From Promethearchaeota archaeon (lineage in GTDB: Archaea > Asgardarchaeota > Lokiarchaeia > Sigyniarchaeales > SOKP01), in contig JAGXNO010000060.1 in assembly GCA_019894975.1 (NCBI GenBank), positions 1-17,079 on the forward strand: a stretch of 17,079 nt of DNA. Direction: 5' to 3'. Made by a program: the position numbers and the translations under genes. Below are positions 2,693-17,079 of this stretch, in pieces. Numbering within the stretch: the first letter of the stretch is position 1; each line of letters starts with the position of its first letter. Under the pieces are notes generated by a model. The model ran no database searches. It was not told where the DNA came from and was given only the letters and a program-made list of their open reading frames with translations.

Positions 2693-2858
2693 TATTTCGT
2701 AAGTTATATTGTTTTAATTAAAAAATAAAAAGAAGGGTACCAAATATTTTTTTCTGTTAACAATAAGCTTTTTCTTTTTTTCAATATGAAAATAATTATC
2801 AAATTTGTTTTGAAAATATAATAATAATATACCGATTTAACTATTTGGAGAGATTGAG

Positions 2859-3506
2859 TTGTCTCAGGAAGTAATTTTTAAAAATATGGTTGATTCCATT
2901 GTTAATTTAGACGAAGAAAAAGCTTTAGAATTGGCAAACAAAGCAATTAAAGATGGTATGAACTTAATGGATGTTGTTGAAAGAGGATATGCCGCAGGTA
3001 TTCGGGAAGTTGGAGAGTTATGGGAAGAAGGTGAATTTTTTCTCCCAGAATTAATGAGAGGAGCAGAAATTATGCAAAAATGTTTGGATTTAATTATTCC
3101 TCACCTGAAGAAGGGATCAGAAGACATTTCGAAGGGAAAAGTAGTAATTGCGACAATTGAAGGGGATATCCATTCCATAGGGAAAACTATTGTTGGGACT
3201 ATGTTAAGAGCCTATGGTTTTGAAGTTCATGACTTAGGGGCTGATGTCCCTGCTGAAAAAATTGTTGATGTAGCTGTAGAAATAAATGCAGATATAATTG
3301 GAGTTTCTGCACTTCTAACAACCACAATGTTTGGTCAGAAAAAAATAATTGAAATCCTAAAAGAACGTAATTTACTGGATAGATTCAAAGTTATTCTCGG
3401 CGGTGCTCCAGTGACAGGTTCCTGGGTAACTGAATGTAATGCTGATGGGTTTGCGGAGAATGCTATTGATGCTGTAAAATTAGTTAAATCTTTACTAAAT
3501 AAATAG
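2859..3506 (+). CDS. Corrinoid (cobalamin-binding) methyl-carrier protein, MttC/MtbC/MetH-cap+B12 type
   Basis: Cap domain FFLPEL; B12-binding motifs DIHSIG (DxHxxG), SALLTTT and GGAP. TTG start preceded by a GGAG RBS. Confidence 0.93.
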   Translation: MSQEVIFKNMVDSIVNLDEEKALELANKAIKDGMNLMDVVERGYAAGIREVGELWEEGEFFLPELMRGAEIMQKCLDLIIPHLKKGSEDISKGKVVIATIEGDIHSIGKTIVGTMLRAYGFEVHDLGADVPAEKIVDVAVEINADIIGVSALLTTTMFGQKKIIEILKERNLLDRFKVILGGAPVTGSWVTECNADGFAENAIDAVKLVKSLLNK

Positions 3507-3534
3507 ATATCAAAATTATTGAGGTAAAGAAAGA

Positions 3535-4419
3535 TTGTTGTTTCATAATTGGCTAAAGGATGACTCGAAGATCATTCTTTTCGATGGGGCCTTTGGAACC
3601 GAACTGATTAAAAGGGGATTAAAGCCAGGAAAAGTCCCAGATCTATTAAATATTGAAAATCCAGAAATCATAACTGAAATTCATAAATCTTATTATGATG
3701 CTGGTTCAGATATGTGTCAATCAAATACGTTCGGCTCAACCCCAATAAACTTAAAACGTCATAATATTGAGGGAAAGATCACTAATATCATTGAAAAAGC
3801 ATTAGATAATATTAAGAAAGCCTATCGTCCAGGACATTTAATTGTTGGTGACATTGGCCCAACTGGAGAATTCAGACCCCCAGTAGGGAATGCTTCAAGT
3901 GAAGAATGGTACTCAAGTTTTAAGACTCAAACTGAACTATTAGAAGGTGGAGTTGATTTATTTCATATCGAAACAATTTCAGATTTAGAAGAAATGTTAG
4001 CTGCTATTCATGCTGTAAAAGACGTTTCAAATAAACCACTAATAGCTTCAATTACTTATAAAAAAACAAAACGAGGTTATTTTACTATTATGGGAGACTC
4101 GTTAGAAAAATGTATAAAAACCTTAGAAAACGAAAAAGTTGATGTTGTTGGGGCAAATTGCACTCTTGGGTCATATGACATGCTTGATTTAGTAAAGCAA
4201 ACAACTGAGCTTACAGATCTACCAATTTCTATAAAACCTAATGCAGGAAAGCCAAGAATTGAAGGGACTAAAACTCTTTATGATCAACCAATTTCAGAAT
4301 TTGTAAGCGATATTCAGAAAATGATAGATTTAGGAGTAAAAATAGTTGGTGGTTGTTGTGGCACAACACCCGAGACTATAAAGGAAATCCGTAAAATTAT
4401 TGATTCAAACAAATATTAA
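3535..4419 (+). CDS. Stand-alone homocysteine S-methyltransferase domain protein (MetH N-terminal domain type)
   Basis: DGAFGTEL, H.SY..AG.D...SNTFG, GDIGPTG, IETISD, GANC, PNAG.P and GGCCGTTP, i.e. three Zn-ligand cysteines. TTG start with a GAGGT RBS. Confidence 0.93.
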   Translation: MLFHNWLKDDSKIILFDGAFGTELIKRGLKPGKVPDLLNIENPEIITEIHKSYYDAGSDMCQSNTFGSTPINLKRHNIEGKITNIIEKALDNIKKAYRPGHLIVGDIGPTGEFRPPVGNASSEEWYSSFKTQTELLEGGVDLFHIETISDLEEMLAAIHAVKDVSNKPLIASITYKKTKRGYFTIMGDSLEKCIKTLENEKVDVVGANCTLGSYDMLDLVKQTTELTDLPISIKPNAGKPRIEGTKTLYDQPISEFVSDIQKMIDLGVKIVGGCCGTTPETIKEIRKIIDSNKY

Positions 4420-4438
4420 ATGAAATGAAAGAAAAATT

Positions 4439-5872
4439 ATGACAATACTTAGACCAAAAATAAATGTCTTAGATGAGAACCATAAAAATGAGATTTTCCA
4501 AGAAGCAAAATTAATATTGGAAACTCAGGGAATTTTCATTGAAAATCAAGAAGCAATTGAAATGTTTGAAAAAAAAGGATTGAACCATGATGGTGCAAAG
4601 TACTTCATTCCTTCAGACTTAGTTGAGAAATCGTTAGATTCAGTTCCTCGTCAAATCACTCTTTTTGATAGAGAGGGAGAGGAACATTTAACCCTAAAAG
4701 AGGATCAAGTTCATTTTGATCCGGGTTCGGCAGCTATTTTTATATTAGACGAAAACACTGGAGAGATAAGAGAGGGAAAATCTAAAGATTTTATTAGATT
4801 TTCTAAGATTGTAGAACAGTTAGATTATATTGATGCTCAAAGCACTGCTCTTATTTATCAAGATGTTCCAAATGATGCACAAGATTGGCATCGTTTATAT
4901 TTGGCATTATCAAATTGTTTTAAACCAATAGTAACAGGAACATTTCGAAAAGAGAGTTTCTCGATAATGAGGGAGATCTTATTAGCATGTAGAACTTCTG
5001 AGGACGATTTAGCTCGAAAACCATTAGCAATATTTGATGCTTGCCCTAGTCCTCCACTAAAATGGTCTGATCTGACCACACAATCATTAATTGATGCTGC
5101 CAAAAGCATGATACCTTCTGAATTTGTGTCAATGCCTTTATCAGGAGCGAGTGCTCCGATTACACTAATTGGTTCAATTACACAGCATTGCGCTGAGTGT
5201 TTAGCAGGAGTTGTAATAGTTCAACTAGCTAACAAAGGTGCTCCATTAATTTGGGGTGGTTCTCCGGCTGTTTTTGATATGAAACATGGAACAACCCCGA
5301 TGGGTGCTATTGAAACAATGATGATTAACCTTGGAGATGTTGAAATGGGCAAATTTCTGCATCTACCTACTCATGCTTATATGAGTCTAACCGATGCTAA
5401 GATCCCTGATGGACAGGCTGGCTTCGAAGCAGGAATGGGAGCATTACTTGGAGGTCTTGGGGGAGTTAATATGATTTCTGGTCCTGGAATGATGGATTTT
5501 GAATCTACTCAAAGTGTTGAAAAACTTATAATTGACAATGAAATAATAGGAATGGTTAAAAGATTACTTCGTGGTATTGATGATTATGGTACACCCTATG
5601 CTTCAGAAATTTTAAAAGACTATGAAGATAAAGAAGAATTATTATCACACCCCTCAACTCTCAAATACTTTAGAAAGGAATTATTTCTACCAAGCCCAAT
5701 TATAGATAGAATGACAAGGGATTCATGGAAACAAGATGGTTCGAAATCAGTAAGAAAACGAGCAAAAGAAAGAGCTTTAAGACTTGCTGAAAAGCCCTCA
5801 ATTAAACCTATAGATGAAAGTTTAGTAAAAGAATTAGATCGTATCACTGAGCAATCAATGAAAGGTACATAG
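4439..5872 (+). CDS. Trimethylamine methyltransferase (MttB) superfamily protein, non-pyrrolysine
   Basis: SPPLKW, MPLSGASAPITLIG, Q....GAP, DMK.G....GA.E and DAKIPDGQAGFE. Uninterrupted ORF with no in-frame TAG. Confidence 0.92.
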   Translation: MTILRPKINVLDENHKNEIFQEAKLILETQGIFIENQEAIEMFEKKGLNHDGAKYFIPSDLVEKSLDSVPRQITLFDREGEEHLTLKEDQVHFDPGSAAIFILDENTGEIREGKSKDFIRFSKIVEQLDYIDAQSTALIYQDVPNDAQDWHRLYLALSNCFKPIVTGTFRKESFSIMREILLACRTSEDDLARKPLAIFDACPSPPLKWSDLTTQSLIDAAKSMIPSEFVSMPLSGASAPITLIGSITQHCAECLAGVVIVQLANKGAPLIWGGSPAVFDMKHGTTPMGAIETMMINLGDVEMGKFLHLPTHAYMSLTDAKIPDGQAGFEAGMGALLGGLGGVNMISGPGMMDFESTQSVEKLIIDNEIIGMVKRLLRGIDDYGTPYASEILKDYEDKEELLSHPSTLKYFRKELFLPSPIIDRMTRDSWKQDGSKSVRKRAKERALRLAEKPSIKPIDESLVKELDRITEQSMKGT

Positions 5873-5883
5873 AAATCATATTT

Positions 5884-6600
5884 TTAATAAATTTTAGCTA
5901 AGAAATCCCCATTTTTCTCTTCTTTTACAATCTCACATTCAAAATCATTTTTACTTGCGATGTTTCTAAGAGTTTGGGGATCAATGAATAATAGTTGAAA
6001 CCTTTCCCCAAGAAGCCCTTTATATTCCATATATAACCTTATTTCCCCAAAATAATGTCCTAAATGACGATTTCTCTCATGATAGGAGAGGTGATCAGAA
6101 TTAGTTGTAATTCGAACATCTAACGAATCTAATAAGATAAAGCCTTCTGGATTTAACAATGTTTTACAGTACCTAAAAAATTTCTTTAATCCTTGAAGAT
6201 CTTCAACAAATCCAATAGATCTCCCCATTAGAAGTATTGTATCAAATTTTTCTTCTTTTAGATCATAAACCGAACCATGCCTAACATTCGATATCCCTCG
6301 TTTTTTCATAATATCACATGCATGAGTTGATATATCAATTGCCAATACCACAAATCCTAAATTTTGAAGTGCTAGAGCATGAGGGCCTACACCAGCCCCA
6401 ATATCTAAAATATTCCCTCGGCATTTTGAAATCGCATATTTTTCAAGAGAAGAAAATTCTTTTTCAGTTCGAAAATAATTCGAAACGTAAAGATCTTCTT
6501 TAAATCCATCATCTCGATAAAAAATTACTTTTGCTTCCTTATTTCCGTTGTAAAATTCTTTTAGAGCTAAACCAAATGGTTCCATTGATTTAAGAGGCAT
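5884..6600 (-). CDS. Class I SAM-dependent methyltransferase
   Basis: Motif I ILDIGAGVG, acidic AIDIS, FDTILLMG, LLNPEG.ILLD. Confidence 0.9.
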   Translation of the reverse strand: MPLKSMEPFGLALKEFYNGNKEAKVIFYRDDGFKEDLYVSNYFRTEKEFSSLEKYAISKCRGNILDIGAGVGPHALALQNLGFVVLAIDISTHACDIMKKRGISNVRHGSVYDLKEEKFDTILLMGRSIGFVEDLQGLKKFFRYCKTLLNPEGFILLDSLDVRITTNSDHLSYHERNRHLGHYFGEIRLYMEYKGLLGERFQLLFIDPQTLRNIASKNDFECEIVKEEKNGDFLAKIY

Positions 6601-6771: not shown

Positions 6772-7035
6772 TTGATTGAAAAAAATGAAAAAGGCTTCTC
6801 ACTGTTTTTAAATAAAGGTAGATGTGGTGGCTGTAGAGCTTGTATCGCAGTTTGTCCAACAGGCATCTTAGAGCTTAGTGATGAATTGAATTATAGAATT
6901 GCCTATATACCAAAAATCAAAGAAGGTAAAGCAAAATATTGTACTGGATGTCGTCGATGCGAATATGCATGTCCTGATTGGTGTATTTACGTTTTGGACG
7001 AAGAAGAATCACCTAATGAGAAAGCAAAAACTTAA
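6772..7035 (+). CDS. 2x[4Fe-4S] ferredoxin, delta subunit of 2-oxoacid:ferredoxin oxidoreductase (KorD-like)
   Basis: Two CxxCxxCxxxCP motifs (CGGCRACIAVCP, CTGCRRCEYACP); first gene of the OFOR operon. Confidence 0.92.
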   Translation: MIEKNEKGFSLFLNKGRCGGCRACIAVCPTGILELSDELNYRIAYIPKIKEGKAKYCTGCRRCEYACPDWCIYVLDEEESPNEKAKT

Positions 7036-7048
7036 TGAGGTTAAATAA

Positions 7049-8221
7049 ATGGAAAAAATAAATGATAAGAGATATTTACCTGAAGGAAAGCATGTTATGA
7101 TGGGTAACATTGCAATGTCTGAGGGTGCGCTCGCCGCAGGTCTTGAATTCTTTGGAGGATACCCAATTACTCCAAGCACAGAAGTGATCGAGCATTTAGC
7201 CCGAAGGATGCCTGAAGTCGGAGGGGTATGCATGCAGATGGAAGATGAATTAGCATCCATAAATTCTGTAATGGGCGCTTCTCTTGTAGGTGCTAAAGCA
7301 ATGACCGCAACATCGGGACCGGGATTTTCATTGATGGTGGAAACAATTAGCATGGCTGCTTGCTTAGAAATCCCTTTTGTGTTTTGTGATGTTCAAAGAA
7401 ACGGTCCGGGTACTGGATTTGTGACCCAACCTCACCACAATGATTTAGGTTTGATGCGATTTGCAGGTAATGGAGAATTTGGGGTTATCGCACTAGCACC
7501 AATGAATTGTCAAGAACTCTTCGATTTAACCATTACAGCATTTAATTTTGCTGAGATTTACCGTTGTCCCGTTTTTCTTGTGTCGGATGCATATTTGGGA
7601 CATCTTCATGAACCATTGTTTATACCATCAAAGGAGGAGATTATTGAGAAAGTAATTCCTCGTGAATTACCCAATGATTTTACACATAAATTCACATATT
7701 ATGATAATAAAACGAACTCATATATAATCCCAAAACCACCAATTATGGGAACAGATTATGTACCATTGATGTTTCTTCATCAAGCACATAATTCAAGTGG
7801 TTTATCTTCACAAAGAGAGGCACTTCCGTTTACAAAGATGCTGACTGATAAACTTAAGACCAATATAGATAAAATTTCTTTGACTGAAGAATATAAATTG
7901 GACGATGCCGAAATAATTATTATTTCTTATGGGTTGCCAGTTAGAACTAGTTATCGCGCAGTTGATATCGCACGCAAGGAGGGAATTAAAGTTGGGATTT
8001 TTAGACTAATTACTTTGTGGCCATTTCCGGATGAGAAAGTAAAGAAAATAGTAAAAAACGCAAAAGCGGTAATTGTACCTGAACTGAATTATACTGGTGT
8101 AATGGCAGAACAAGTTGAACGGGTGACAAAATTAGAAATTCCTATAATAAAAATTCCTAAGATATGCGATTTTCATCACCCAGATGATATTCTAAAAGTT
8201 ATAAGGGAGGTGGCAAAGTAA
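7049..8221 (+). CDS. 2-oxoacid:ferredoxin oxidoreductase alpha subunit (KorA-like)
   Basis: GYPITPSTE, QMEDE, TATSGPGFSLM, DVQR.GP.TG, LWPFP, VPELN. GAGGT RBS. Confidence 0.94.
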   Translation: MEKINDKRYLPEGKHVMMGNIAMSEGALAAGLEFFGGYPITPSTEVIEHLARRMPEVGGVCMQMEDELASINSVMGASLVGAKAMTATSGPGFSLMVETISMAACLEIPFVFCDVQRNGPGTGFVTQPHHNDLGLMRFAGNGEFGVIALAPMNCQELFDLTITAFNFAEIYRCPVFLVSDAYLGHLHEPLFIPSKEEIIEKVIPRELPNDFTHKFTYYDNKTNSYIIPKPPIMGTDYVPLMFLHQAHNSSGLSSQREALPFTKMLTDKLKTNIDKISLTEEYKLDDAEIIIISYGLPVRTSYRAVDIARKEGIKVGIFRLITLWPFPDEKVKKIVKNAKAVIVPELNYTGVMAEQVERVTKLEIPIIKIPKICDFHHPDDILKVIREVAK

Positions 8222-9126
8222 TGTCGTCATATCCCAGTGAACAACCAGAACATCCATACTTCTCTATTTCAATGCCAGGAAAGTTTTTCAAAAGATACTT
8301 CTCTCTTTTCTGTGCAGGATGTGGTTATGGAATAATAGGTCATCTTTTCAACCGTGTATTTGAAGATGAAAAACTAGATCCTAAATTGTATCCAGTAGTT
8401 ATTGGAATCGGGTGTTATAGTCAGATTTTGTTAACTTTACATCATGCTACACAGAGAATATTGACATTACATGGTCGAGCACCAGCATTAGCTACAGGAA
8501 TGAAAATGGCAAACCCAAAAATGAAACCCATTATTTTTACAGGAGATGGTGATAGTCTAGGAATAGGGGGAAATCATTTTATGCATATTTGCCGAAGAAA
8601 TCTTGATTGTGTTATCCTTATTTTTAATAATAGTATTTATGCTATGACTGGTGGACAAGGCGCACCCACAACTTTATTTGGTGCTATGAGTTCAACTACA
8701 CCGTATAAAATGTTCGAAAATAGGGCCGATGGTGTTAAACTTGCACTCACTGCAGGAGCTACTTATGTTGCACGAACAACAGTTGCTCACCCCCGAACTT
8801 TAATGAAATATTTTAGAAAGGGATTAAAACATAAAGGTACTGCTGTAATAGAAATAATTACTCCTTGTGTTACATACTTTGGAAGAAAAAATCTTGATAG
8901 TTTAGGATCAGAAACTTTAGGTATAAAAGGACAGAAAATGGATAATACTGGAATTATGATTGACTGGATTAAAAGAAATAGTTTACGAATTAATCAAGCG
9001 AAATTCATGACAGAAGAAGAACTGATGAATAAATATATCATTGGAGAATTTAGATTTGATCCTAATAGACCAGAATATTCTGAAGAATATGAGAAAATAA
9101 AGCAAATTGCAATGGGGGAGAAGTAA
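8221..9126 (+). CDS. 2-oxoacid:ferredoxin oxidoreductase beta subunit (TPP-binding, KorB-like)
   Basis: CAGCG, GIGC, HGRA, GDGD...NN..YAMTGGQ and TPC. Overlaps the alpha stop as TAATG. Confidence 0.94.
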   Translation: MSSYPSEQPEHPYFSISMPGKFFKRYFSLFCAGCGYGIIGHLFNRVFEDEKLDPKLYPVVIGIGCYSQILLTLHHATQRILTLHGRAPALATGMKMANPKMKPIIFTGDGDSLGIGGNHFMHICRRNLDCVILIFNNSIYAMTGGQGAPTTLFGAMSSTTPYKMFENRADGVKLALTAGATYVARTTVAHPRTLMKYFRKGLKHKGTAVIEIITPCVTYFGRKNLDSLGSETLGIKGQKMDNTGIMIDWIKRNSLRINQAKFMTEEELMNKYIIGEFRFDPNRPEYSEEYEKIKQIAMGEK

Positions 9127-9129
9127 AAA

Positions 9130-9726
9130 TTGGCACGTTATGAAATACGTATTGCTGGATTTGGAGGACAGGGTGTAATTACCCTATCAAAAATGATAAT
9201 AACTGCTGCTTCGCTTTATGAAAACTTAGCAGCTACTCAAACTGAAGCTTATAGTGCTTCTGCTCGTGGAGGTGCTTGTTGGGCAGAAGTTGTTGTGGAA
9301 TTAGATAAAAGTATAGAAGTTATTGATTATCCTCAAGCCTTAAAGCCATACGATTTTTTAATTGTACTTTCTGGAGAGTCAGCAGCCCGTGTTACTCCCG
9401 ATCAGTTTAAGACTGACGAAAACACAGGATATCTTATTTGGGATCCATCAACGATCAAAGATTTTAAAACAGCAAAACAAATTCGAAAATCATTAAGTAT
9501 TCCTGTTCAAAAAATAGCGGTTGAAAATTTTGGGAATATTGTGTTTGGGAACTCGATACTTTTTGGTGCCTTTACATTCCTCTCAGGAATAATATCAGAA
9601 GAATCTGCGATTGAAACCTTAAAGAAATTTGTACCAAATTCTACATTAGAAAAAAATTTAGAAGCATTTGAATTAGGAAAAAAAGAAGCGCAAGAATTTA
9701 TGAAAATGTTAAAGGAGGATAATTAG
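9130..9726 (+). CDS. 2-oxoacid:ferredoxin oxidoreductase gamma subunit (KorC/G-like)
   Basis: IRIAGFGGQG, Y...ARGG, N...GA, N..AF..G. TTG start 3 nt after the beta stop. Confidence 0.93.
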   Translation: MARYEIRIAGFGGQGVITLSKMIITAASLYENLAATQTEAYSASARGGACWAEVVVELDKSIEVIDYPQALKPYDFLIVLSGESAARVTPDQFKTDENTGYLIWDPSTIKDFKTAKQIRKSLSIPVQKIAVENFGNIVFGNSILFGAFTFLSGIISEESAIETLKKFVPNSTLEKNLEAFELGKKEAQEFMKMLKEDN

Positions 9727-9730
9727 AGAT

Positions 9731-11548
9731 ATGTATATTAACAAAATAAAAAAGGGATGGCAAGAATTAGATTCTGAGATAATTAGAACAGGCAAATGTG
9801 TATATTGTGGTGCATGTGGGGCGTTTTGTGCAAATATAAAGTTTGATACCTCTAAAGAAATTCCAATCGAGGATGGTTCGTGCCAAGATAGTAATACTTG
9901 TAGAGATGGATTCGGATTATGTTACAATTTATGCCCAAAAACGGGAAATGATCAAATACCTTTATCTCTGTTAGATAAATGGGTATTTGGAAAGGAGCAG
10001 GATAGAATATTAGGTCATTACATAAATATTTTAACTGTGAGATTAACGGATACTGCAAAACAAAGACTTCCTATTGAAGCGGGTCCTATTACTGCCTTAT
10101 TATATACTGCTATGGAGGTAGGAAAAATCGATTGTGCAATACTTACAGATAAGGATGAGAATTTTATACCCCATCCCATAATGGCAACAAATCAAGAGCA
10201 GATTTTTAGCAGTGTGGGATATAAACCAAGTCAAAGTCCAACCTTGTCATTAATAGGAGATGCGATAAATAAAGAATATACTAATACCGCTGTTGTTGGT
10301 ACCCCCTGCCAAATTCAAGCATTAAGAAAATTACAAAATCATCCCATATTTGATTATGAAGCATATGATTTGATTTCACTAGCAATAGGGACTTTTTGCT
10401 TTGGAACGTATTATAACCAACTGCTAGCTCAATGTCTTGAGGATTTTAATATAGATCACAAGGAAATTAAGAAATTTGACTCAAATAAAAGTGATTTTAA
10501 ACTAAAAATTTTTACAACCTCAGGTACTAAGGAGATTCCACTAAATTATATTTATGATAAATCAATTCGCAATGCCTGTTTTTCATGCTCAGATTATACT
10601 GCTGAATTTGCGGATATATCTGTTGGTAATGTTGGAAGTGAGAAAGACTGGAAGACTCTGATTGTTAGAACTGAAAGAGGGAAGGAAATTATTGATATTT
10701 GCATTGAGAAAGGTTTTCTTGAAATTAAGAATCTTCCGAATGAAGACGAGGAATTGGTATTAGATATTACAAGAAAGAAAACAGATCTTGCTAAAATAGA
10801 ATCTATAGAAGAACTATCACCTGAAATTAAAAGCTTTAAGATCCGAAATGAAAGAATTGCTAAAGCATATAAACCCGGCATGTTTGTGGTTTTATGGCTT
10901 CCCGATACAGATTTCTTACCTATGTCTATTTCCCAAATAGAGGGTAATTTAATTGAAATAACCGTACAGAAAATCGGTGAGGGTACGGGAAAATTATTTG
11001 AACTGAATGAAGGTGATAGACTTGGTATTAAAGGTCCTTTTGGTAACTCATGGAATTACGAAGATGCGTCTAACATTTTAATTGTTGGAGGAGGAATGGG
11101 GATTGCCGCTCTAACGTCATTAATTGAGCCATTAAAAAAAAATAAAAAGAACCTCTACTTAACTATTGGAGCTAAAGACAAAGCCTCATTAATATATGCT
11201 GATCGACTAACAAATATTATCCCAAATACAATGTGTTCCACCGATGATGGTTCTTTTGGTAAGAAGTGTTATGTAACCGACACTATTGAGGATATTATGA
11301 CTAAGAACAACATCGATATGGTTATTACTTGTGGTCCTGAAATAATGATGAAAAAAGTCTTAAATCTTGCTGAATCAAAGAAAATCCAAATCCAAGCTTC
11401 CCTTGAAAGAAAAATGAAATGTGGTGTTGGAGTATGTGGTTCCTGTTGTATTGGTGAAAATAATGATGTTTCTGTTTGTAATGAGGGACCAATCTTTACT
11501 TCTGAACAACTGAAGAAAATTCCTCAGTTTGGAAGCTATGAAAAATGA
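9731..11548 (+). CDS. Fusion of an Fe-S/FrhB-FdhB (F420-binding beta subunit family) domain and a PyrK-like FAD/NAD(P)/[2Fe-2S] electron-transfer domain
   Basis: N-terminal CVYCGAC...C and CYNLCP; FrhB motifs VGTPCQ, IGTFC, CFSC.D, ADISVG, IVRT..G. From ~aa 353, PyrK motifs PGMFV, PMS, GPFGN, GGGMGIA, TDDGS.G, CGPEIMM, SLE..M.CGVG.CG.C and C.EGP. AAGGAGG RBS inside the gamma gene. Confidence 0.9.
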   Translation: MYINKIKKGWQELDSEIIRTGKCVYCGACGAFCANIKFDTSKEIPIEDGSCQDSNTCRDGFGLCYNLCPKTGNDQIPLSLLDKWVFGKEQDRILGHYINILTVRLTDTAKQRLPIEAGPITALLYTAMEVGKIDCAILTDKDENFIPHPIMATNQEQIFSSVGYKPSQSPTLSLIGDAINKEYTNTAVVGTPCQIQALRKLQNHPIFDYEAYDLISLAIGTFCFGTYYNQLLAQCLEDFNIDHKEIKKFDSNKSDFKLKIFTTSGTKEIPLNYIYDKSIRNACFSCSDYTAEFADISVGNVGSEKDWKTLIVRTERGKEIIDICIEKGFLEIKNLPNEDEELVLDITRKKTDLAKIESIEELSPEIKSFKIRNERIAKAYKPGMFVVLWLPDTDFLPMSISQIEGNLIEITVQKIGEGTGKLFELNEGDRLGIKGPFGNSWNYEDASNILIVGGGMGIAALTSLIEPLKKNKKNLYLTIGAKDKASLIYADRLTNIIPNTMCSTDDGSFGKKCYVTDTIEDIMTKNNIDMVITCGPEIMMKKVLNLAESKKIQIQASLERKMKCGVGVCGSCCIGENNDVSVCNEGPIFTSEQLKKIPQFGSYEK

Positions 11549-11587: not shown

Positions 11588-13189
11588 TTATTCAATTTTG
11601 CTTAAATGCTTAATTCCCAAAAATAATAGAGGAATTGCAATTACTCCTGAAATTAATATCATAGGACTTAAATAAAATAGTTGTGCAAGATGTGGTGACG
11701 TTGGTGGACTAAAAAAGAGTAAAAGAGCCGTAAAAATTATCTGAAATGGAATCATTTGTAATACCATTAGTATTAAATTATTTGTAGTCATAGCCCGTCC
11801 TTTTTCTTCAAATGAAGGGCTGAAACATTGGATACCAACTGCTTGAAACATAACTAATTGATTATAGATTAAATAAAAAGTAAAGAAAAAGATAATTGTA
11901 AAGACATCAAATTTAAAGAAGATAGCAAAGAAAATAGTTAAACCTAAGGTCATAATTACATTCATCAAAAACATTGCTAAAATATAAGAGTAAACCAAAG
12001 CTCTTACATTTCTAGGACTCCTTTTATAAACCCAAATTAAATCTTTAGATCCTACAAAAATATAACTTCCAAAAAGTAAACCATACATCATGCCCCCCAT
12101 GATAATTACCATTACAATAATTAGTGATTGGACTATAGATACTTCTGTACCCATTGTAAAAGAAAAAATTACTCCCAATACTCCAACAATCCCACACACA
12201 TAAACGATTTTCATTATTGTTTCTCTTTTTCTTAAAAATTCCTTTAATTGTGTAATGATTAATCCTTCCCACTTATGTCCGGTAATTTTTCGGGTCATTA
12301 AGTAGAATTTATTCTCAGACTCAATTACCATAGTAATTTTTTCAATTCCTCCCTCAACGGTAAAGAAACTCTCTGCCTTTTTATATGCAATATATAGAAA
12401 TAAAACTGGAATAATTATAGCAATCAAACTACTATACCAAATATTTAAAAAATAATTGCTTATCAAACTAGGTTCTATAAAATATAAAATTATATTCGAA
12501 AACCATATTGAAGGATAAAAACTTACCCAATTTCTCAGTTCGGGGTTATTAATAAGATAATTAAACAAAAATTGGAGAGAATAAATTACGGCTATTATCG
12601 CTATTGAAAGAAGAAACATTAGGACCTTACCTATATCTCGAGCACGTTCACTTTTCGCAATTTTATGCTCAAGCCAAGATGAAATAATCGATCCTAGTAA
12701 AGCTGCGAATAGAACCAGACCAAAAATGCATGAATAAATGATAACATAATGCATTACAATAAGATTAATAATAGGATTTAACATTCCAATTATAAGGGGC
12801 GTTGCAATTAAAATAATTGCTGTATAGATTGGGAATTTACCTATGAATTCCCCTAAAAAAATATCCCCTGAAGTAGCTGGAGATGCTAATAAAATTTCTT
12901 TAAAGCCTATTTCAGTCTTCCTATAAACAGTGTTTAATGGGTATATCAAGATGAAAAGAAATAAAGTCATCATACCAAATTCAATTAAAAGTGACACCAC
13001 CAGTAAGATTTCAGGACCCACTATATCTATTATAGTGGGCATAAAAATGTCAAAAATAGCGGGACATAGAAAAAATGCCCATATCAACAACACACTATAT
13101 AAAATGATTAAAAAAAGTACTCTGTTTTTGCGAAAAAGGCTAGTTCTTAACCGTATCTCATTTTTAGCTATTGATTTCCAGAGAGCCAT
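11588..13189 (-). CDS. Multi-pass ABC exporter-type permease
   Basis: Many hydrophobic segments in two similar halves (KNEIRL / LKEFLR), directly downstream of an ABC ATPase. ATG at 13189 (MALWKS) is preferred over the track's TTG at 13270, which would overlap the ATPase by 65 nt. Confidence 0.8.
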   Translation of the reverse strand: MALWKSIAKNEIRLRTSLFRKNRVLFLIILYSVLLIWAFFLCPAIFDIFMPTIIDIVGPEILLVVSLLIEFGMMTLFLFILIYPLNTVYRKTEIGFKEILLASPATSGDIFLGEFIGKFPIYTAIILIATPLIIGMLNPIINLIVMHYVIIYSCIFGLVLFAALLGSIISSWLEHKIAKSERARDIGKVLMFLLSIAIIAVIYSLQFLFNYLINNPELRNWVSFYPSIWFSNIILYFIEPSLISNYFLNIWYSSLIAIIIPVLFLYIAYKKAESFFTVEGGIEKITMVIESENKFYLMTRKITGHKWEGLIITQLKEFLRKRETIMKIVYVCGIVGVLGVIFSFTMGTEVSIVQSLIIVMVIIMGGMMYGLLFGSYIFVGSKDLIWVYKRSPRNVRALVYSYILAMFLMNVIMTLGLTIFFAIFFKFDVFTIIFFFTFYLIYNQLVMFQAVGIQCFSPSFEEKGRAMTTNNLILMVLQMIPFQIIFTALLLFFSPPTSPHLAQLFYLSPMILISGVIAIPLLFLGIKHLSKIE

Positions 13190-13205
13190 TCTATGTTTAT
13201 CATCT

Positions 13206-14048
13206 TTATTTCTTTTTTTTAATTTTCTTATCTTTTTCAAGTTTTTGAGGAACTGCTTCCCTCCATACAAGTAAATCCTCTATACGCTTGGCACCCATTA
13301 TTTTAAGATAGGCTTCTTCTAGATCTTTAGTTTCCGCTGACTCAATTATTTCTTTTGGTGTTCCCTCTACTTTTATTTTCCCATTATCAATTATTCCGAT
13401 TAAATCGCATAGTTCTTCTGCTGCATCAAGAAGATGAGTACATATAAAAACGGTTTTATCCGCTTTCTTAGTGAGATCAGATATTAAATCTTTTACCATT
13501 CTGGCAGCTGCAGGATCTAGATTCGATGTCGGTTCATCTAGAAAAAGAATTTTTGGATCCTGAATTAAAGCGGCACATAAACAAACCTTTTGCTTCATTC
13601 CTCTACTATATCCTTCTAAGAGATCATTTTCACGTCCCCCTAAATCAAATATACCAATTAATTCCTCAATACGATTAAAAATAATATCTTTTGGAAGATA
13701 ATATAATTCCCCTACAAACTCTAAAAATTCTTTTGCTGTTAATTTTTGATATAAGCCCGGTGTTTCAGGTAGGAAGCCAGAATTAATTTTAACTTGTTGA
13801 CTCTGATTAATAATATCATATCCTACCACTTTCGCATTTCCTGAAGTTGGTGAAATAATAGAATTAAGCATTCGTACGGTAGTAGTTTTTCCGGCTCCGT
13901 TGGGACCAAGTAATCCAAATGTTGATCCATAAGGAATTTTTAGGTTTAAATTATCAACAGCTATAACGTTTCCGAAATTCTTAGTAAGGTTGTTTGTTAT
14001 TATTGCATATTTTTCAGAAATATTAATACACACCCAAATTTGAAACAA
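13206..14048 (-). CDS. ABC transporter ATP-binding protein (multidrug/ABC-2 type)
   Basis: Walker A GPNGAGKT, signature YSRGMKQK, Walker B LFLDEPT, H-loop CTH. Start uncertain: TTG at 14048, GTG at 14033 or ATT at 14021. Confidence 0.93.
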   Translation of the reverse strand: MFQIWVCINISEKYAIITNNLTKNFGNVIAVDNLNLKIPYGSTFGLLGPNGAGKTTTVRMLNSIISPTSGNAKVVGYDIINQSQQVKINSGFLPETPGLYQKLTAKEFLEFVGELYYLPKDIIFNRIEELIGIFDLGGRENDLLEGYSRGMKQKVCLCAALIQDPKILFLDEPTSNLDPAAARMVKDLISDLTKKADKTVFICTHLLDAAEELCDLIGIIDNGKIKVEGTPKEIIESAETKDLEEAYLKIMGAKRIEDLLVWREAVPQKLEKDKKIKKKK

Positions 14049-16670: not shown

Positions 16671-17079
16671 TTGGTTAATTACACGAAAAAAGGACTGATT
16701 TTAGGTATCATTGGAGTAATTTTTGTAGGATTTCAACCTATTGTTGCCATCTCAAAACCTTCAATGTTAAACGCACATATTTCTGCGGCCATGACATGCT
16801 TAGTGGAAGCCATGATTTTCTTTCCTTTAATGTTAATTGAATTAAAAAAGATTAAAAAGGATAATCTTATTCATGAGGTTAATCCAAAATCGGTATTGAA
16901 AGGGTGGAAAAATAATATAGGACTATTAATATTCATTGGGTTTATTTTCGCTATTAATCAAATATTTTTCTTCATAGGATATGACATGGCCGGTGCAATA
17001 AATGGCTCCTTAACCCAAAAGACAACGGTTTTCTTCTCTATGATATTTGGATATTGGATACTTAAAGAAAAGATAACAA
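16671..17079 (+). CDS. EamA/DMT-family transporter, 3' end truncated by the window edge
   Basis: Not in the ORF track; translated by hand from TTG at 16671: MVNYTKKGLILGIIGVIFVGFQPIVA...FFFIGYDMAGAINGSLTQKTTVFFSMIFGYWILKEKIT. Hydrophobic helices ending in the typical 'ILKEKIT' of an EamA repeat. Confidence 0.85.
   Translation, partial: MVNYTKKGLILGIIGVIFVGFQPIVAISKPSMLNAHISAAMTCLVEAMIFFPLMLIELKKIKKDNLIHEVNPKSVLKGWKNNIGLLIFIGFIFAINQIFFFIGYDMAGAINGSLTQKTTVFFSMIFGYWILKEKIT

Follow-up and report, generated by a model that had tools for sequence, protein, structure and literature searches.

The stretch of DNA considered here (the window) is the entire 17,079-bp contig C132 of a 3.9-Mb metagenome-assembled genome (MAG) of an Asgard archaeon, which is 95% complete and 8.6% contaminated. 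Close homologues of the window genes are labelled Promethearchaeota, Loki-, Thor-, Hod- and Hermodarchaeota. The window contains three co-oriented open reading frames (ORFs) separated by intergenic gaps of 28 nt and 19 nt, which encode a corrinoid protein, a stand-alone homocysteine methyltransferase module and an enzyme of the MttB superfamily (referred to below as the trio). This arrangement and its domains had been described in the original prediction for this locus, and our ORF and Pfam calls agree with it. We propose that the trio probably represents a cobalamin-dependent methionine synthase built of separate proteins. The three genes and the region preceding them are as follows:

2693..2858, plus strand: upstream region, an AT-rich intergenic gap of 166 nt between hisS and the corrinoid gene, presumed to be the promoter region
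2859-3506, plus strand: corrinoid (B12-binding) carrier of the MttC/MtgC type, 215 aa; PF02607 (E 3e-19) and PF02310 (E 5e-27)
3535-4419, plus strand: stand-alone MetH-type homocysteine S-methyltransferase (zinc thiol methyltransferase; HcyMT), 294 aa; PF02574 (E 2.5e-64)
4439-5872, plus strand: non-pyrrolysine MttB-superfamily methyltransferase, 477 aa; PF06253 (E 6.5e-75), no in-frame stop

The corrinoid gene has a TTG start codon with a GGAGAG sequence resembling a ribosome-binding site 7 nt 5' of it, and TATA-like runs are located 30-60 nt ahead of the start. Its product scores 217 bits against the NCBIfam model TIGR02370 (cut-off 215) and contains the DxHxxG motif as D103, H105 and G108. 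It is nearest to the MttC, MtmC and MtgC carriers rather than to the B12 domain of MetH: among solved structures, the corrinoid protein MttC is closest (7xcn_M, E 7e-50), and the B12 domain of MetH follows at approximately 1e-29.

HcyMT is encoded by the sole PF02574 gene of the genome and spans positions 2-282 of the 283 positions of the profile. Its orthologues, with 70-91% identity, are found across Asgard MAGs. The protein shares approximately 45% identity with the module at the N-terminus of T. maritima MetH (1q7m, E 3e-59), keeps the MetH motifs, and has the zinc ligands C209, C274 and C275, which align to C207, C272 and C273 of that enzyme. The PF02574 family also includes enzymes of the MmuM and BHMT kind, and HcyMT could act alone on S-methylmethionine, S-adenosylmethionine (SAM) or betaine, the proximity of the corrinoid and MttB genes being incidental. 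Indeed, NCBIfam lists the BHMT model PRK07534, but with 192 bits this match is below the cut-off of 338, as is PRK09485 with 118 bits (cut-off 215). MetH is far closer to HcyMT than the solved structures of the MmuM type (5dml, 1e-16) or BHMT (1umy, 2e-12) are, and the linkage to the corrinoid and MttB genes is kept across Asgard families and bacteria. We regard independent action of HcyMT as highly improbable; as originally predicted, the protein appears to be of the MetH type and not of the type using S-methylmethionine or betaine.

The MttB homologue differs from the pyrrolysine-containing MttB in that its gene has no in-frame UAG. Leu317 aligns with the pyrrolysine of 7xcl, and the score of 369 bits against TIGR02369, the trimethylamine MttB equivalog, is under the cut-off of 525. 

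Like MetH, both the T. maritima enzyme and a fused 820-aa MetH found in the Asgard family f2, the trio combines a homocysteine module with identical zinc ligands and a DxHxxG motif. Unlike MetH, it is devoid of pterin-binding and activation domains, and its corrinoid protein is closer to MttC/MtgC. A Pfam search of the other window ORFs revealed no PF00809, URO-D (MtaA/MtbA) or PF02965 domain, consistent with the earlier statement that the window has no pterin-binding, MtaA/MtbA-type or MetH reactivation domain. In a complex prediction, HcyMT and the corrinoid protein gave a score of 0.50 (best control 0.00), with runs agreeing in at least 62% of the contacts and a predicted local distance difference test (pLDDT) value of the partners of at least 78; 58 of 80 solved complexes reached the mark, as did 2 of 110 mismatched pairs, passes at or below 0.60 comprised 7 of the 80 solved complexes and both mismatches, and since such a pass may reflect likeness to solved MetH structures, it was not used as evidence.

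Conservation of the cluster and alternation with other methionine synthases

Conservation was analysed in 80 species-level Asgard genomes with an orthologue of the MttB homologue (68-88% identity). The order corrinoid-HcyMT-MttB on one strand was found in 74 of them, mostly with gaps of 20-30 nt. Among the 80 genomes, two loci are cut by contig ends, and two loci of Hodarchaeota harbour an activation-like gene after MttB. The arrangement far exceeds what would be expected by chance, and the trio is thus conserved elsewhere, as the original prediction had implied, not only in these genomes but also in other Asgard families and on bacterial contigs.

In a phylum-wide sample of 301 Asgard genomes, stand-alone HcyMT is present in 110 and close relatives of the MttB homologue in 181. 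The two genes are adjacent in the family of the window (f1) and in f24. They are separated by one gene in f29, f16 and part of f7, and by 2-8 kb in other f7 genomes. The gene order in f7, f29 and f16 is corrinoid-HcyMT-activation-like-...-MttB, and the inserted protein of 216-248 aa is a match to PF02965, the activation domain of MetH (E 3e-6 to 2e-9). Overall, at least four Asgard families beyond those with the order of the window show other orders, another example being MttB-corrinoid-HcyMT in locus L042. Together, the genes of the cluster supply three of the four MetH modules, if the PF02965-like genes of other lineages are included.

Contigs of bacterial appearance also carry corrinoid-HcyMT-(activation-like)-MttB, their MttBs being 41-46% identical to that of the window. 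These contexts were found via protein representatives and the contigs encoding them, three representatives being located on contigs too short for neighbours; an alignment-based MttB search of genome contigs returned close Asgard orthologues only. Across approximately 95 loci, no pterin-type, MtrH, URO-D, MetF or RamA gene was found near the trio (up to 6 kb on each side).

Some side observations concern the same genes. Small in-cluster proteins of other Asgard families match the C-terminal half of PF02965 only (L034:5892-6638, L035:5202-5852 and L126:7457-8110), and in the genus of the window the PF02965-like cluster gene was lost or never present. ORFs of 219-226 aa located 3' of MttB in L080, L081 and L084 were considered as activation-like genes and rejected upon sequence comparison with the activation-like proteins. 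Additional stand-alone HcyMT paralogues (36-56% identical), remote from corrinoid and MttB genes, are present in f7/f29 (L044:6184-7077, L045:6198-7091 and L046:5565-6458); the one in L045 adjoins two Acyl_transf_3 genes.

The distribution of the trio was compared with that of other methionine synthases. Some genomes of family f2 harbour the fused 820-aa MetH, which comprises homocysteine, pterin, B12 cap and B12 domains and is followed by an activation-like gene and MTHFR (locus L040); in these genomes a search revealed no match to the window-type MttB. Within family f1 (68 genomes), 32 genomes have the trio only, 17 a gene for a core-MetE-like protein only, 17 have both and 2 neither, counts which are descriptive only, because related genomes are not independent and such patterns overstate the support for a role in methionine synthesis. 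Of the two genomes with neither, one carries a fragment of MttB where its contig ends, and the other has a completeness of 83%. In five trio-bearing sister genomes that are 100% complete, no PF01717 protein was found, and the PF00809 proteins are solely of the dihydropteroate synthase (DHPS) and DUF4346 types.

Two further f2 genomes harbour an MttB orthologue (68-71% identical) directly beside a core-MetE-like gene in convergent orientation (L039:3279-5731 in genome G165, and L128:172-2627), and no HcyMT match was found in either genome at E <= 1e-20. This fits the idea that MttB would feed homocysteine methylation, whichever thiol methylase is used. In L039, a gene for an 812-aa protein resembling Type ISP restriction-methylases is located upstream.

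Because activation-domain genes join the cluster in other lineages, fused MetH and this MttB did not occur together in the genomes searched, and the trio alternates with core-MetE-like genes, we ascribe to the trio a probable role in methionine synthesis.

The substrate pocket of the MttB homologue and the methyl donor

In MtgB, glycine betaine is bound by the four residues Y97, R312, H348 and F356 (Picking et al. 2026, PMC13080624). An alignment to 9yce/2qne, in which the numbering offset of +2 was checked on all four residues, revealed that they are replaced by S97, H312, S347 and E355 in the window protein. Because all four ligands are replaced, glycine betaine is unlikely to be the methyl donor, and the suggestion of the original prediction that betaine could serve as such is not upheld.

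All HcyMT-linked MttBs, archaeal and bacterial, have a common set of motifs at positions lining the substrate site of MtgB: FxPGSAA (93-99), PxH/Q/NxY (310-314), NxI/VSGxG (344-350) and D/N-F/Y-E-S (353-356). Unlinked MttB paralogues, including the second MttB of the genome (on C20), deviate at these positions. The shared motifs therefore point to one conserved substrate, on which the HcyMT-linked enzymes would act, and the conserved signature offers a concrete handle for screening of donors. It is possible, although in our opinion rather doubtful, that the enzymes of this clade draw on an endogenous one-carbon carrier or another unrecognised methyl donor and not on an environmental quaternary amine. 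If this were true, the trio would be the main de novo methionine synthase in many Asgard lineages without MetE or a pterin-type MetH module, and likewise in several uncultured bacterial phyla, and would represent a fourth type of methyl entry into methionine synthesis.

Proposed methyl transfer, the genomic background and related systems

According to the model we favour, in which the trio is a methionine synthase of separate proteins, the MttB-family enzyme would take a methyl group from a donor, likeliest a methylated amine without a carboxylate and not glycine betaine, and pass it to the small corrinoid protein in its Co(I) state. The methyl-Co(III) protein would then dock on the MetH-type zinc enzyme, where homocysteine would be converted to methionine and Co(I) regenerated. 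Oxidised Co(II) would presumably be repaired by an ATP-dependent activase of the RamA/AcsV type (652 aa), of which the genome encodes one at C142:23918-25876 and which is likely the reactivation route for the corrinoid protein. In the 95%-complete genome no PF02965 protein was detected, either with Pfam or with phmmer using the Asgard activation-like proteins. The model rests directly on the genes present, their key residues, the conservation of their linkage and the phyletic patterns, and from these we infer in which direction the methyl group flows and what donates it, that RamA is used and that the trio is independent of methyl-pterins in vivo.

The original prediction had described the trio as a split MetH in which MttB occupies the folate slot. 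The split is supported by the conserved linkage, the activation genes and the complementary distribution, in contrast to the proposed donor and to strict folate independence. The latter is plausible from the gene content, but it goes further than the evidence, given two homologues of the MtrH family of methyl-pterin:corrinoid methyltransferases and MetF/MetV elsewhere in the genome. A MetH-type pterin module was found nowhere in the genome, since its two PF00809 proteins are a strong match on C66 and a second one of the DUF4346 type. The stand-alone C66 protein was considered as the missing pterin module and rejected as a DHPS: it scores 190 bits against TIGR01496 (cut-off 162.6), its PDB relatives are all DHPS, and proteins of this type occur in 252 of the 301 Asgard genomes, with or without the trio.

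The genome was also searched for metH, metE, pterin-type enzymes and RamA, as suggested with the original prediction. Besides the activase and the lack of a MetH-type pterin module, this revealed a core-MetE-like protein of 339 aa (C131:101125-102144, corresponding to L026:5126-6145), which keeps the His-x-Cys...Cys zinc motif and matches PF01717 weakly and PRK00957 of NCBIfam with 86 bits, short of the cut-off. This protein is probably another methionine synthase, similar in kind to MesB/MesC and fed by a corrinoid protein. Because of this gene, the trio is not the only candidate methionine synthase of the genome.

Several points weigh against the proposed function. The role of the cassette in methionine synthesis is a prediction from its genes, and we know of no characterised MttB-superfamily enzyme that does not serve catabolism. 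With the core-MetE-like gene on C131, the trio need not be essential in the window genome. Further, the genome has two MtrH-family genes on C118 and C112 as well as two MetF/MetV pairs at other places, and 70 of 71 genomes of the family encode MtrH homologues. With these genes present, the corrinoid protein of the trio could also receive methyl groups in trans from methyl-tetrahydromethanopterin (methyl-H4MPT) or methyl-tetrahydrofolate (methyl-THF).

The catabolic nature of the characterised MttB-superfamily systems raises the possibility that the trio is a module for methylotrophy: the PF02574 protein would methylate not homocysteine but another thiol (a cofactor like coenzyme M or another one) or run in reverse, and the product would not be methionine. 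Modules of corrinoid and URO-D (MtaA-like) proteins are indeed present elsewhere in this genome: three more small corrinoid proteins are encoded beside URO-D-family (MtaA/MtbA-like) genes at C88:37051-38770, C103:12845-14652 and C109:6870-10028, which suggests several further corrinoid methyl-transfer modules. However, the close relationship of HcyMT to the homocysteine module of MetH, including motifs and zinc ligands, its alternation with the core-MetE-like gene and fused MetH, and the MetH activation-domain genes in the cluster of other lineages make a catabolic function very unlikely.

A shared use of the corrinoid protein deserves more weight. In Ruegeria, genetic evidence showed that the demethylation of glycine betaine by MtgB and the synthesis of methionine by MtgE share one corrinoid protein (Mausz et al. 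2025, PNAS, PMC12478193); hosts of MtgBCDE are Ruegeria pomeroyi, Phaeobacter inhibens and S. meliloti. As in MtgBCDE, the window genome combines a methyltransferase of the PF06253 family with a stand-alone PF02574 homocysteine module around one B12 carrier, the small corrinoid protein, and encodes a RamA-type activase, presumably for its reactivation. There, however, the pterin module MtgD (PF00809) is essential, while the window genome has no MetH-type pterin module; glycine betaine is the donor, while the betaine-binding residues are absent from the window MttB; and the hosts are aerobic bacteria with dispersed (R. pomeroyi, P. inhibens) or colocalised (S. meliloti) genes, while the genes form a tight putative operon here.

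By analogy, the corrinoid protein of the trio could be a hub for two routes: methyl groups from MttB would flow via an MtrH-family enzyme to H4MPT or THF and into the Wood-Ljungdahl pathway, and in reverse methyl-pterin would be used for methionine, whose synthesis would then not be folate-independent. In R. pomeroyi, both routes use one corrinoid protein together with a pterin module that works in both directions, and the genes are dispersed (PMC12478193). The window genome encodes the activase, both MtrH homologues, and MetF/MetV along with an HdrA-MvhD-like gene. On the other hand, the MtrH homologues of the family are present regardless of the trio and, within the up to 6 kb surveyed on each side in approximately 95 loci, never near it; the operon retains MttB with MetH modules only, and genomes with pterin-containing MetH have no match to the window-type MttB. 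We consider such a hub unlikely, but a real possibility.

The idea of a split MetH with MttB is not new. The same cluster was described in Ca. Electryoneota and "diverse bacteria", where a novel corrinoid-dependent methyl transfer for methionine synthesis with a donor other than methyl-THF was hypothesized (Williams et al. 2022, Environ Microbiol, PMC9324843), and this bacterial proposal precedes ours. The two cassettes share the three core genes and the hypothesis; the bacterial MttBs, with the identity given above, share the pocket signature, the window MttB is of the non-pyrrolysine kind and was placed in the clade distinct from MtgB and MttB by identity and this signature, and the HcyMT and corrinoid genes are adjacent. 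In contrast to the Williams cassette, the host is an archaeon here, and an activation-domain gene is missing from the window and the genome, although present in f7, f29, f16 and the two Hodarchaeota loci; further, the published Electryoneota MAGs also encode full MetH, which is lacking in the window genome.

For the core methionine synthases MesA, MesB and MesC, corrinoid proteins were predicted as the source of the methyl groups (Price et al. 2021, PMC7857596). As predicted for the trio, they would need no folate-binding domain for making methionine from a methylated corrinoid protein; however, they have a MetE-type and not a MetH-type fold, and their predicted donors are MtrA or the corrinoid iron-sulfur protein CoFeSP instead of a carrier loaded by MttB. 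In another study, MttB was discussed with HgcA and not with methionine synthesis (Nat Commun 2025, PMC12484752). Our literature search revealed no published test of this cassette and no description of it in Asgard archaea. The present analysis adds the alternation with core-MetE-like genes and fused MetH, the exclusion of the DHPS lead, and the clade-wide pocket signature, which makes glycine betaine unlikely as the donor.

The trio is of interest for several reasons. Among the known prokaryotes, Asgard archaea are the nearest relatives of eukaryotes. Methionine synthase belongs to the core enzymes, and in whole genera of these archaea the trio is the only recognisable one. If the proposed model is true, methionine and SAM would be regenerated with methyl groups that do not pass through the folate or methanopterin pool, and the one-carbon metabolism and the B12 demand of these organisms would be tied to methylated compounds in sediments. 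Last but not least, the MttB superfamily would be widened from catabolism to biosynthesis.

Neighbouring genes in the window

The trio is flanked by the following features:

upstream of the trio: hisS (divergent from the corrinoid gene), a small ORF and pyrF
5884-6600, convergent, downstream of the trio: SAM-dependent methyltransferase
6772-9726, downstream of the trio: operon for ferredoxin and the alpha, beta and gamma subunits of a 2-oxoacid:ferredoxin oxidoreductase (OFOR)

The SAM-dependent methyltransferase was considered as a part of the system and rejected, since it is found beside the trio in 9 of the 80 loci only. Directly after the OFOR operon, a 605-aa fusion protein is encoded (9731-11548), which combines FrhB/FdhB-like domains with an FNR/PyrK-like NAD-binding module and a [2Fe-2S] domain. 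The same layout, ferredoxin/OFOR operon followed by the FrhB-FNR fusion, exists downstream of the trio in L028. On the minus strand, an ORF of 560 aa without a Pfam match (11588-13270) overlaps the end of a gene for an ABC ATPase (13206-14048), and a similar pair, a 531-aa protein without a Pfam match and ABC_tran, adjoins the trio in L030 and L031.

A gene for an EamA-family transporter is located immediately 3' of MttB on a bacterial contig (L138:6558-7454). In Asgard loci, EamA genes were found at a distance of a few kb to 11 kb from the trio, at 16671-17078 in the window and at L030:13014-13961. This proximity could indicate that the substrate is transported, or could be a coincidence.

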